A stretch of 44,989 nucleotides of DNA from IMG/VR virus record IMGVR_UViG_2872703611_000005. One strand, given 5' to 3'. This stretch comes from a virus (taxonomy: Duplodnaviria > Heunggongvirae > Uroviricota > Caudoviricetes). A program made the position numbers and the translations under genes. Below the pieces are notes generated by a model. It saw only the letters and a program-made list of their open reading frames with translations, was not told the DNA's origin and searched no databases. Positions 30,328 to 33,355 of this stretch are shown here, one piece after another; the first letter of the stretch is position 1, and each line of letters opens with the position of its first letter.

Positions 30328-32728
30328 TTTGGGGATTGATGCGGCAGAGTTTAAAAATGAAATTCCCCGTATCAAAAACCTTCTGAATGGTGCAGCCAGC
30401 GATGCAGAACGGTCTTCTGCCCGTATGCAGCGTTTTATGGAGCGTCAGACTCAGGCCGCCCGGCAGACAATGCAGGCGGCTTCTTCGGCTGCAACAGCCG
30501 CATCCGTCCATGCGCAGACGGTGGAGAAGAGCGCACAGGCTCATGAACGCATGGCCCGCGAGGTGGAGCAAACCCGCCAGCGTATGGAGGCACTGAGCCA
30601 GAAAATGCGCGAGGAACAGGCACAGGCCATGGCTCTGGCGGAGGCTCAGGATAAAGCGGCTGCCGCGTTTTATCGTCAGATTGACAGTGTGAAACAGGCC
30701 AGTGCGGGGTTGCAGGAGTTACAGCGTATTCAGCAGCAGATCCGACAGGCCAGAAACAGTGGCGGGATTGGTCAGCAGGATTATCTGGCGCTGATTTCTG
30801 AGGTTACGGCGAAAACCCGTGTTCTTACGCAGGCTGAGGCAGAGGCTACCCGACAGAAAGTGGCGTTTATCCGTCAGCTTAAAGAGCAGGCAACCCGCCA
30901 GAATCTTTCTTCTTCTGAGTTGCTTCGTGCCAGGGCTGCCCAGCTGGGGGTAAGCAGTGCTGCAGAAGTGTATATCCGCAAAATGGAGCGGGCAGGAAAA
31001 GCCACGCATTCGCTGGGTCTGAAAAGTGCAGCGGCCCGCCAGGAGATAGGCGTTCTGATAGGTGAACTGGCCCGCGGCAATTTAGGGGCGCTGAGGGGAT
31101 CCGGGATAACGCTGGCTAACCGTGCCGGATGGATAGACACACTGATGTCACCGAAAGGCATGATGCTGGGCGGGGTTATTGGCGGTATTACCGCGGCCGT
31201 CTATGGTCTGGGTAAAGCCTGGTATGACGGTCAGAAGGAGGGGGAAGAATTTAACCGCCAGCTGTCGCTGACGGGGCATTATGCCGGAGTCACTGCCGGG
31301 CAGCTGTGGACGCTCAGTCGTGCTATTTCCGGGAATGGTATCACGCAACATGCTGCAGCCGGTGCGCTGGCTCAGGTGGTGGGGAGTGGTGCATTTCGTG
31401 GAAACGATATCGGTATGGTGGCGAGAGCTGCCGCACAGATGGAGCGATCGGTTGGCCAGTCGATCAGCGATACCATAAATCAGTTTAAGCGGCTGAAGGA
31501 TGATCCTGTAAATGCCGCGAAGGCTCTGGACAATGAGCTGCATTTTCTTACTGCCACTCAGCTTGAGCAGATACGCGTCCTTGGAGAGCAGGGGCGCTCC
31601 AGTGATGCGGCACGGATAGCCATGTTTGCACTGGCAGAGGAAACCGGTCGGCGTACTGCGGATATTGATAATAACCTCAATGCGCTGGGTAGTACGCTGC
31701 AAACCTTGTCTGACTGGTGGAAGCAGTTCTGGGATGCGGCCATGAATATTGGTCGTGAAGACTCGCTGGATGAACAGATTGCCGCTTTACAGGAGAAAGT
31801 GTCGCGGGCGAAAAGACTCCCCTGGACGGCATCATCTTCTCAGGTTGAATACGATCAGCAGCGTCTTAACGATCTTCAGGAGAAAAAACGCCAGAAGGAT
31901 TTGCAGGATGCAAAAGAGCAGGCAGAGCGGAATTATCAGGAGCAACAGAAACGACGTAATGCTGAAAATGCTGCACTGAACCGGATGAATGAAACGGAAG
32001 CAGCACGACATCAGCGTGAAATTGCGCGTATTAATTCCATGCAGTACGCCGATCAGGCTGTCAGGGATGCAGCGATACAACGTGAAAATGAACGTTACGA
32101 GAAAGCCCTGGCATCCGGTAAGAAAAAAACACGCGAAACCCGTAATGATGAGGCCACCAGGTTATTGCTGCAGTACAGTCAGCAACAGGCACAGGTGGAA
32201 GGACAGATTGCTGCTGCAAGACAGTCAGCAGGCATTGCCACTGAAAAGATGACAGAAGCGCATAAACAGCTTCTGGCTCTGCAGCAGCGCATCAGCGATC
32301 TGGACGGGAAAAAACTGACGGCAGATGAAAAGAGTGTGCTGGCCCGTAAAGATGAACTGATTCAGGCACTGATGCTGCTGGATGTAAAACAGCAGGAGCT
32401 TCAGAAACAGACGGCACTCAACGATCTGAAGAAAAAAACAATTCAGCTGACCAGTCAACTGGCTGAAGAAGAGCGCGCTCAGCGTCAGCAACATGACCTG
32501 GATATCGCCACGGTGGGTATGGGTGATCAGCAGCGGCAGCGATATCAGGTACAACTGAGTCTTCGCCAGAAATACCAGCAACAGCTGGAGCAGTTGAGGC
32601 GGGATAGTGAGCAGAAAGGAACATATAACACGGATGACTACAGAAAGGCCGAGCAGGCGCTGACGGAGAGCCTGAACCGACAACTGAATGAGAATCGCCG
32701 TTACTGGCAACAGCTTGAAATTGCTTAG
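30299..32728 (+). CDS. H: Tail tape-measure protein H, N-terminal 809 codons ending at an in-frame TAG
   Basis: Coiled-coil-rich, Gln/Ala/Arg-rich protein after G-T, as lambda gpH; terminates at TAG 32726-32728 while the same frame stays open downstream. Confidence 0.8.
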   Translation: MDQIANLVIDLGIDAAEFKNEIPRIKNLLNGAASDAERSSARMQRFMERQTQAARQTMQAASSAATAASVHAQTVEKSAQAHERMAREVEQTRQRMEALSQKMREEQAQAMALAEAQDKAAAAFYRQIDSVKQASAGLQELQRIQQQIRQARNSGGIGQQDYLALISEVTAKTRVLTQAEAEATRQKVAFIRQLKEQATRQNLSSSELLRARAAQLGVSSAAEVYIRKMERAGKATHSLGLKSAAARQEIGVLIGELARGNLGALRGSGITLANRAGWIDTLMSPKGMMLGGVIGGITAAVYGLGKAWYDGQKEGEEFNRQLSLTGHYAGVTAGQLWTLSRAISGNGITQHAAAGALAQVVGSGAFRGNDIGMVARAAAQMERSVGQSISDTINQFKRLKDDPVNAAKALDNELHFLTATQLEQIRVLGEQGRSSDAARIAMFALAEETGRRTADIDNNLNALGSTLQTLSDWWKQFWDAAMNIGREDSLDEQIAALQEKVSRAKRLPWTASSSQVEYDQQRLNDLQEKKRQKDLQDAKEQAERNYQEQQKRRNAENAALNRMNETEAARHQREIARINSMQYADQAVRDAAIQRENERYEKALASGKKKTRETRNDEATRLLLQYSQQQAQVEGQIAAARQSAGIATEKMTEAHKQLLALQQRISDLDGKKLTADEKSVLARKDELIQALMLLDVKQQELQKQTALNDLKKKTIQLTSQLAEEERAQRQQHDLDIATVGMGDQQRQRYQVQLSLRQKYQQQLEQLRRDSEQKGTYNTDDYRKAEQALTESLNRQLNENRRYWQQLEIA

Positions 32729-33355
32729 GGTGACTGGAAAAACGGAGTCCTGCGTGCACTCCAGAATGTCACTGAGAATGCGGATAACACAGCCGGGACA
32801 GTGGAACAGTTGTTCACGTCTGCGTTCAGTAGCATGAGTGACTGGCTGGCGACATTCTGTACTACAGGCAAACTCAATTTCAAATCCTTCACCTCTTCTG
32901 TGCTGTCAGATATGTCCAGAATCATGGCTCAGATAGCTTTAATGAAAGCGGTAAAAGGCATTGCTTCCGCGCTGCCTTTTGATTTTGTAGCCAATGCTGA
33001 TGGCGGTGTTTATCAGTCGGCTGATTTGAGTCGCTACAGTGGCACGGTGGTTAACCGTCCGACGTTTTTTGCTTTTGCAAAAGGCGCGGGTGTGATGGGG
33101 GAAGCGGGACCTGAAGCCATTCTGCCACTGCGTCGTGGTGCTGACGGTAAGCTGGGGGTTGTGGCGGATATTGGTGGTTCAGGTATGGCGATGTTTGCCC
33201 CGCAGTACAACATCGAGATCAATAACGATGGCACGAACGGGCAGATAGGTCCGGCTGCCCTGAAGGTGGTTTATGACCTTGGGAAAAAAGCGGCAGCGGA
33301 CTTTATGCAACAGCAGGCCCGTGATGGTGGTCGGTTAAGTGGAGCATATCGGTAA
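32729..33355 (+). CDS. In-frame continuation of tape-measure frame (C-terminal segment), no own ATG/RBS
   Basis: Same reading frame as H directly after the TAG; ends with TAATG overlap onto M; GEAGPEAILPLRRGADGKLGV reads like a tape-measure C-terminal motif (recollection, unverified). Confidence 0.5.
   Translation, partial: GDWKNGVLRALQNVTENADNTAGTVEQLFTSAFSSMSDWLATFCTTGKLNFKSFTSSVLSDMSRIMAQIALMKAVKGIASALPFDFVANADGGVYQSADLSRYSGTVVNRPTFFAFAKGAGVMGEAGPEAILPLRRGADGKLGVVADIGGSGMAMFAPQYNIEINNDGTNGQIGPAALKVVYDLGKKAAADFMQQQARDGGRLSGAYR

Follow-up and report, generated by a model that had tools for sequence, protein, structure and literature searches.

The window analyzed here (the whole stretch of DNA, 44,989 nt) carries a lambdoid prophage of an enterotoxigenic E. 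coli (ETEC) lineage, in which it is inserted between potC and potB. The tail genes occur in the same order as in lambda (G-T-H-M-L-K-I-J), with the tape-measure gene encoded between the G/T chaperones upstream and M-L-K-I-J downstream (Table 1). The tape-measure gene is preceded by a Shine-Dalgarno sequence (GGAGG, 30286-30290). Translation from the ATG at 30299 gives 809 sense codons, a TAG, 208 further sense codons and a TAA at 33353-33355 that overlaps the ATG of M (33355-33357) by 1 nt (TAATG). This confirms the original prediction of an in-frame amber codon at 32726-32728 inside the gene and of a 208-codon continuation to 33355 that ends in the overlap with M, an overlap with which intact homologues are also annotated. 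Tape measures of the lambda family are expected to be encoded as one polypeptide in an uninterrupted frame; here, the frame is broken by the TAG at codon 810. The interrupted gene is a pseudogene allele of the gpH-like family.

Table 1. Features of the tape-measure locus (positions are those of the window).
Feature	Position	Strand	Details
Tail assembly chaperones G and T	29603..30327	+	G, 29603-29989; T, 29998-30327 (-1 frame); directly upstream of H; both intact
Tape-measure gene (lambda gpH homologue)	30299..33355	+	By translation, 1018 codons + TAA; broken at codon 810
Truncated product (predicted), 809 aa	30299..32725	+	TMP_2, residues 228-426; TMP_4, residues 616-692 (Pfam)
Premature amber TAG, codon 810	32726..32728	+	Ancestral CAG (Gln); C>T transition at 32726
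Orphaned 3' coding segment, 208 codons	32729..33352	+	Tape_meas_lam_C in codons 1-75 (32729-32953)
Codons 983-1014, equivalent to lambda gpH residues 818-849 (coiled-coil gpI-docking helix)	33245..33340	+	BLASTP alignment; absent from truncated product
M homologue (distal tail protein)	33355..33684	+	Start overlaps H stop (TAATG); own GGAG at 33341-33344; ends TAG-G

The probability that 208 codons remain open by chance is ~4.6e-5 (for uniform codon use). Pfam domains were identified on both sides of the amber codon: TMP_2 (E = 5e-49) and TMP_4 (E = 2e-17) before it, and Tape_meas_lam_C (PF09718, E = 1.1e-24) over residues 1-75 of the segment that follows. Because the PF09718 match begins at the first residue after the TAG, we conclude that the continuation is real coding sequence. 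The downstream segment had been described as lacking both an ATG and a ribosome binding site of its own. The first part of this description is incorrect, as in-frame starts are present (GTG 32801 and ATG 32834, 32912, 32924 and 32942). The second part stands, in that a search for a credible Shine-Dalgarno sequence at these post-TAG starts found none, and, as the original prediction implied, the segment is not a gene in its own right. From ATG 32834, gene callers place a 173-aa ORF that carries Tape_meas_lam_C; this start and GTG 32801 are situated 25-36 codons past the TAG. Two minus-strand ORFs that cover the site (32418-32759 and 32725-32925) were considered spurious, as they lie inside a conserved coding region that is supported by homology.

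The predicted full-length protein is colinear with lambda gpH (BLASTP E = 3e-51, residues 289-1018 vs. lambda residues 110-853, plus an N-terminal HSP) and has the same Pfam domains (TMP_2 and Tape_meas_lam_C), although it is longer (1018 vs. 853 aa) and only ~25% identical. Lambda gpH is naturally cleaved to gpH* and a C-terminal fragment after tail assembly, and its residues 818-849 form the coiled-coil helix with which it docks to the gpI tripod at the tail tip (PMC10721106, PMC12617516). This tip-docking helix is conserved at the C-terminus of the window protein, where codons 983-1014 align with it (GPAALKVVYDLGKK... vs. GPAALKAVYDMARK... in lambda). Q810 aligns with lambda gpH residue 626, so that both the cleavage region (~690-710) and the docking helix (818-849) are downstream of the break. 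The truncation thus takes away the entire Tape_meas_lam_C domain and the C-terminal gpI-docking helix.

Comparison with intact tape-measure homologues, as the original prediction had suggested, shows the same start and length and CAG (Gln) at codon 810. In fact, all 19 ungapped full-length homologues that were fetched have CAG at this codon and no internal stop. An intact 3057-nt CDS with the same coordinates is encoded in E. coli 203740, phage HannyBb and phage cdtI, again with CAG at codon 810 in all three. Intact alleles from phage cdtI, Escherichia phage HannyBb, PhiR55_1 and many E. coli prophages (e.g., WP_032222075.1) share 97.6-99.2% nucleotide identity with the window over the whole gene, and their start, length and overlap with M are identical; they differ from it in having CAG rather than TAG at codon 810. 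Over the 3,059 nt that were compared (the gene and 2 further nt, 30299-33357), no base other than the C>T change at 32726 is private to the lineage. Past the TAG, the window and the nearest alleles (L018, L012 and L034) are separated by synonymous changes only, and therefore the lesion is recent. We looked for a parental allele that differs at the TAG alone and did not find one, the closest intact allele being 99.2% identical.

Of the 338 complete RefSeq E. coli genomes with a match to the 61-mer containing the TAG, none matches it exactly, and in IMG/VR the TAG form of a 38-mer occurs in one contig and the CAG form in 23. When the 208-aa post-TAG sequence was searched against a database of 5.8 billion proteins (120 of 283 matches listed), all of the matches listed are ≤364 aa and most are "partial" fragments at contig ends or deletion chimeras; full-length tape measures are not among them. 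This listing lends no support to a naturally split tape measure. Homologues with an authentic stop at this position followed by an independent gene would have refuted the original prediction; we looked for them among the three annotated relatives and the 19 full-length homologues and found none.

We conclude that the gpH-type tape-measure gene of this ETEC lambdoid prophage very probably acquired a recent, spontaneous nonsense mutation, from CAG (Gln810) to TAG via a C>T transition, that became fixed in the lineage. A nonsense mutation in a defective prophage was the first of three options offered by the original prediction (programmed readthrough and sequencing error were the others), and it is supported by the CAG found in 19/19 homologues and by the C>T change being the sole lineage-private base. 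The remaining genes are intact, and this is a single-hit defective prophage: 57 of 58 reference genes align over their full length (RusA aligns over residues 1-112 of 121), and the tape measure is the only one of the 58 with an in-frame stop. Deamination at a Dcm site (CCWGG), a hotspot for C>T changes, was considered as a source of the transition, but the context (TGCTCAGGG) has no Dcm site.

In a non-suppressing host, RF1 would terminate translation at codon 810 and an 809-aa protein would be released. This protein would be without Tape_meas_lam_C, without the counterpart of the region where gpH is cleaved to gpH*, and without the C-terminal helix by which the tape measure is held to gpI in the tail-tip complex. 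Judging from lambda, whose gpH is only ~25% identical, tail initiation should fail, and induction would yield DNA-filled heads and no infectious particles. We predict that the prophage is tail-less and non-infectious, unless the host suppresses the amber codon or another prophage complements or repairs the gene. Laboratory H amber (sus) mutants of lambda have a suppressible amber codon and are tail-defective. The amber codon of the window should be likewise suppressible and is predicted to be tail-defective, although this allele is natural and occurs in a wild ETEC prophage rather than in a laboratory mutant. There are four routes by which function might be rescued. The mutation could revert. 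A Gln-inserting amber suppressor could restore the exact wild-type protein, and rare readthrough by near-cognate tRNA-Gln may do so occasionally. Finally, a co-resident lambdoid prophage could supply the gene via complementation or recombination. Complementation of defective lambdoid prophages by co-resident prophages is known (PMC2669165).

It is possible, but very improbable, that the prophage is not dead. The amber codon could act as a strong attenuator that leaves viable phage at very low titre, since a tail needs few copies of the tape measure (3-6) and readthrough by tRNA-Gln, the main near-cognate reader of UAG in E. coli, would restore the exact wild-type protein; or the two halves could work in trans in the manner of gpH* and gpHC.

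Also to be considered is a host lineage with an amber suppressor tRNA (e.g., a supE-type glnV allele), in which the gene would be effectively functional. Some natural coliforms are reported to carry amber suppressors, a Gln-inserting one would give the exact wild-type protein, and the allele persists in several isolates. This persistence does not require a suppressor, however, since lysogeny places no selection on the tail genes of a prophage. Natural E. coli rarely carry suppressors, and none is encoded in the prophage: a search of the window with ARAGORN for a tRNA with a CUA anticodon found none (the anticodons identified are CAT, TCG and TCT). We consider a suppressing natural host very unlikely.

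Alternatively, the TAG may be deliberately decoded, by programmed readthrough or by recoding of TAG to Gln (as in code 15 phages), as a way to regulate or modulate production of the tape measure. The window resembles stop-codon-recoded phages in having an in-frame TAG in place of a Gln codon of a late structural gene; the codon replaced specifies the residue that is inserted at TAG by recoded phages and by near-cognate tRNA-Gln, and the downstream frame is perfectly preserved. Preservation of the frame is expected because the mutation is recent. Unlike recoded phages, the window has one such TAG rather than many (a single in-frame stop among 58 genes), and its tRNAs lack a CUA anticodon. TAG is used as a normal terminator, being the genuine stop of the Q-like gene, of the methyltransferase and of M, in the last case in the same TAG-G context as at codon 810. 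The stop is also not conserved in relatives, as it is absent from all 19 homologues and from the complete genomes searched with the 61-mer. Thus, the readthrough option of the original prediction is rejected, and we give deliberate decoding a minimal probability. Pyrrolysine or selenocysteine decoding of the TAG can be dismissed, as E. coli is not known to have a pyl system and selenocysteine uses UGA.

Equally improbable is a functional split tape measure, in which the 809-aa N-terminal product and a C-terminal fragment re-initiated at GTG 32801 or ATG 32834 assemble in trans and mimic gpH* and gpHC. Natural cleavage of lambda gpH provides a precedent, and the downstream in-frame starts and the 173-aa ORF predicted with Tape_meas_lam_C would fit. 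However, cleavage in lambda follows tail assembly, so the covalent link is presumably needed while the tail is assembled, and the break in the window protein is ~65-85 residues upstream of the region equivalent to that of lambda cleavage. Furthermore, the downstream starts lack a Shine-Dalgarno sequence, and this architecture is found in none of the 19 full-length homologues.

The third option, an error that hides a true C and an intact gene, is hardly credible. Sequencing or assembly errors can alter a single base in this way, and the support for T comes from assemblies rather than reads. Against this, the same allele is present in independent assemblies from different projects, and the site is not within a homopolymer. 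The window is 100% identical to the complete (finished) chromosome CP024667.1, and TAG is present in Logan contigs assembled from four ENA/SRA runs (ERR052915, ERR052891, SRR446356 and SRR447490) and in an IMG/VR contig from a separate IMG genome, all of which are 99.97-100% identical to the window; the ERR052915 contig was seen in 10 samples. An identical 809-aa product is present in two GenBank drafts (EMX73769.1 and EMX74449.1), from ETEC Envira 8/11 and 10/1, which originate from Brazil in 1998 (PMC4462620). The same 809-aa sequence is also encoded in CP024667.1 and the Logan assemblies. The assemblies with the TAG differ very little from one another and may all represent one clone. They validate the base call but are no evidence of a widespread or old allele.

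A close parallel is the pool of defective lambdoid prophages in E. coli O157 Sakai (Asadulghani et al., 2009, PMC2669165), which also have inactivating lesions in morphogenesis genes. Most of the Sakai prophages have multiple defects (frameshifts, deletions and IS insertions), whereas a single point mutation is the only lesion detected in the window prophage. Even so, the Sakai prophages remain inducible and packageable, and co-resident prophages can rescue them (PMC2669165). The Sakai defects are described in that paper in general terms only, and a search of it for nonsense or tape-measure terms found none. The amber knockout is real but is an ordinary event of a known kind that reveals no new biology. 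It does illustrate cleanly, in nature, how prophage decay begins: in a 45-kb lambdoid prophage from an ETEC outbreak lineage, one point mutation has occurred and all else is intact. The mutation also indicates that this prophage probably cannot produce infectious particles without help, although it could still be rescued. From a practical standpoint, gene callers report the gene as a pair of "proteins" of 809 and 173 aa (deposited as EMX73769/EMX73770) that would be better annotated as one pseudogene. The T at 32726 could also act as a lineage marker.

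The tape-measure gene H, which is lambda gpH-like, is interrupted in frame by a TAG in the context ...GAA ATT GCT TAG GGT GAC TGG.... From its ATG at 30299 the frame runs through 809 sense codons, the TAG (codon 810), a further 208 sense codons and a TAA (33353-33355) that overlaps, by its last A, the start codon of M, which follows (TAATG). This architecture, as originally predicted, was seen in the translation and in the mechanical ORF list, where H is split into 30269..32728 and 32801..33355. As the segment past the TAG matches Pfam Tape_meas_lam_C from its first residue (E = 1e-24), we conclude that it is severed coding sequence; with uniform codon use assumed, an open run of 208 codons has a probability of ~4.6e-5. 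The original prediction gave this segment neither an ATG nor a ribosome binding site. In-frame starts do occur (GTG 32801; ATG 32834, 32912, 32924 and 32942), and automatic gene callers predict a 173-aa ORF from ATG 32834, but no usable Shine-Dalgarno sequence was found at any in-frame start in the segment.

Positions 30299-33357 (3,059 nt, H and the next 2 nt) were aligned with 19 ungapped full-length homologues from annotated genomes, phages and IMG/VR (97.6-99.2% identical). Codon 810 is CAG in all 19; none has an authentic stop there, nor any other internal stop in H. In three close relatives that have CAG at this codon, E. coli 203740 and phages HannyBb and cdtI, a single intact 3057-nt tape-measure CDS is annotated, with the start and M overlap found in the window. 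At only one of the 3,059 positions, that of the C>T (32726), does the window depart from all 19 homologues, and every remaining variant in H is also present in at least one intact allele. Past the TAG, H differs only synonymously from each of the three closest alleles (at 3, 3 and 1 codons, respectively). Judged by its sequence, the orphaned 3' part is undecayed, and we conclude that the lesion is a recent single transition. None of the 338 complete RefSeq E. coli genomes matching the 61-mer around the TAG carries it exactly; in IMG/VR the TAG 38-mer occurs in one contig and the CAG 38-mer in 23. The CAG in all 19 homologues and the single private base support a nonsense mutation in a defective prophage, the leading one of three options originally offered.

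The gene retains the domains, colinearity and synteny of the lambda tape-measure family and lacks an intact ORF; it is a pseudogene allele of that family. It is analogous to a laboratory H amber mutant of lambda, although here the allele arose naturally. Inactivation of prophages by point mutation is already well known, and the one slightly unusual aspect is the cleanness of the case, in which no lesion beyond a single private base could be detected. The 809-aa product falls in a 90%-identity protein cluster of 25,550 members, whose representative and most listed members bear the name host-specificity protein J, apparently through a clustering artefact in the database.

Programmed readthrough, or recoding, was the second option and is rejected, every defining feature that could be tested being absent: the stop is conserved in none of the 19 homologues, TAG is a true terminator elsewhere in the prophage, and none of the window's three tRNAs reads UAG. 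When 58 annotated reference genes, taken from two close relatives, were compared one by one with the window by tblastn, 57 were recovered at full length and RusA over residues 1-112 of 121; an in-frame stop was present only in the tape-measure gene. The 57 other genes end in TGA (30), TAA (24) or TAG (3: the Q-like gene, a methyltransferase gene and M). In M, directly downstream of H, the terminator is TAG then G, a context identical to that of the premature TAG.

The window is 100% identical to the 5.07-Mb chromosome CP024667.1 (GenBank) over the 22.4 kb retrieved, and that chromosome encodes the exact 809-aa truncated protein. The same protein is found in Logan assemblies of ERR052915 (a contig in 10 samples), ERR052891, SRR446356 and SRR447490, and in E. 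coli Envira 8/11 and Envira 10/1 (GenBank EMX73769.1 and EMX74449.1). Both Envira strains are enterotoxigenic E. coli (ETEC), isolated during an outbreak of diarrhoea in 1998 at Envira in Amazonia, Brazil (PMC4462620). The TAG-bearing contigs and the IMG/VR contig are 99.97-100% identical to the window in DNA, and the rare mismatches are all outside the tape-measure gene. Given this recurrence in several independent sources, sequencing error, the third option, is rejected: that one wrong base at a non-homopolymer site should be common to different centres, platforms and years is implausible. The carriers are one clonal lineage, and a widespread allele is not implied. In the SRR447490 contig the large terminase gene lacks 1 nt at window-equivalent 23361 (called product 685 aa vs 700 aa); this may reflect misassembly or else a second lesion of that isolate.

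The H protein and lambda gpH align colinearly, with Gln810 opposite lambda residue 626 of 853. In cryo-EM studies of lambda, residues 818-849 of gpH make up a three-helix coiled coil that terminates the tape-measure rod and, within the tail tip, rests on the gpI tripod (PMC10721106; PMC12617516). Cleavage of gpH to gpH* occurs near residues 690-710, only after tail assembly (PMC12617516). The docking-helix equivalent, all of Tape_meas_lam_C and the cleavage-equivalent region are downstream of the TAG; thus, the 809-aa product is missing the end by which the ruler is anchored to the tip complex. By analogy with lambda, tail initiation should fail and induction would yield heads without tails. 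M is preceded by a GGAG of its own, 10 nt before the ATG, and late transcription in phages of this kind is antiterminated by Q. Given both features, we expect the TAG to exert only limited polarity on M-L-K-I-J.

In E. coli, the near-cognate tRNA that decodes UAG is mainly tRNA-Gln (PMC5289835; PMC4333366), and either rare readthrough or a supE-type suppressor would restore the wild-type residue at codon 810. In O157 Sakai, defective lambdoid prophages can be complemented by, or recombine with, co-resident ones (PMC2669165); a co-resident lambdoid prophage may likewise rescue this one by complementation or recombination.

Coordinates of the interrupted gene and of other features in the window
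Feature	Position	Strand	Remarks
Integrase, excisionase, exonuclease	left end	minus	
hokD, Doc-family toxin, dicB, ydfC	11534-12585 and 4173-5784		early region
Three-tRNA cluster	17132-17381		downstream of DNA methyltransferase gene; anticodons CAT, TCG, TCT
Segment with TerB/TciA-like moron	17382-18218		between tRNA cluster and holin
G/T junction	29965-29989		T open only from 29965
Candidate slip site	29975-29983		CCGGAAAAG
Premature TAG in H	32726-32728		
gpI-docking helix equivalent	codons 983-1014 of H		GPAALKVVYDLGKKAAADFMQQQARDGGRLSG; strongly conserved with lambda
Region beyond mosaic boundary	~34390-43360		after gene L
Class I SAM-dependent methyltransferase moron	44001-44666	minus	after tfa; 100% identical to relative's WP_000240999.1
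Second tail-fibre-assembly gene remnant	44801-44980		right prophage end

The window comprises an essentially complete lambdoid prophage, located between potC and potB in close relatives. It also encodes cI-like and Cro regulators, replication genes, a Q-like antiterminator, the tRNA cluster, lysis genes, terminase, portal, a ClpP-capsid fusion and tail genes in the order Z-U-V-G-T-H-M-L-K-I-J, then Lom, side tail fibre and tfa. The tRNA trio shows the ileZ-argN-argO-type layout characteristic of lambdoid prophages in EHEC/ETEC and includes no suppressor; the CAT tRNA is Met according to ARAGORN and tRNA-Ile in a relative's annotation, and the others are Arg-TCG and Arg-TCT. The segment next to it, with ~650 bp more than in the closest ETEC relative, sits where Stx phages have stx. 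Its tellurite/colicin-resistance moron (Pfam TerB, E = 1e-7) is ~80% identical at the nucleotide level to tciA of phage P1 and, unexpectedly, 94% identical to Actinobacillus phage vB_Apl-pPE4. Where the chaperone genes G and T meet, T lies in the -1 frame with respect to G, and the sole candidate slip site ahead of the G stop does not match the canonical GGGAAAG of lambda.

The early region is closest (99.3% at the nucleotide level) to ETEC genomes of another set, and its Qin/Rac-like prophage-type accessory/toxin genes are all 100% identical to the ETEC relative. From terS through L, identity to the related strain IrN is about 98.4-100%, the tape-measure protein being lowest (98.4%); beyond the mosaic boundary, K, I, J, Lom and the side tail fibre have only 85-94% amino acid identity to IrN. 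The tail-fibre-assembly remnant has 80% amino acid identity to tfa residues 132-191 and is annotated as a pseudogene in IrN.
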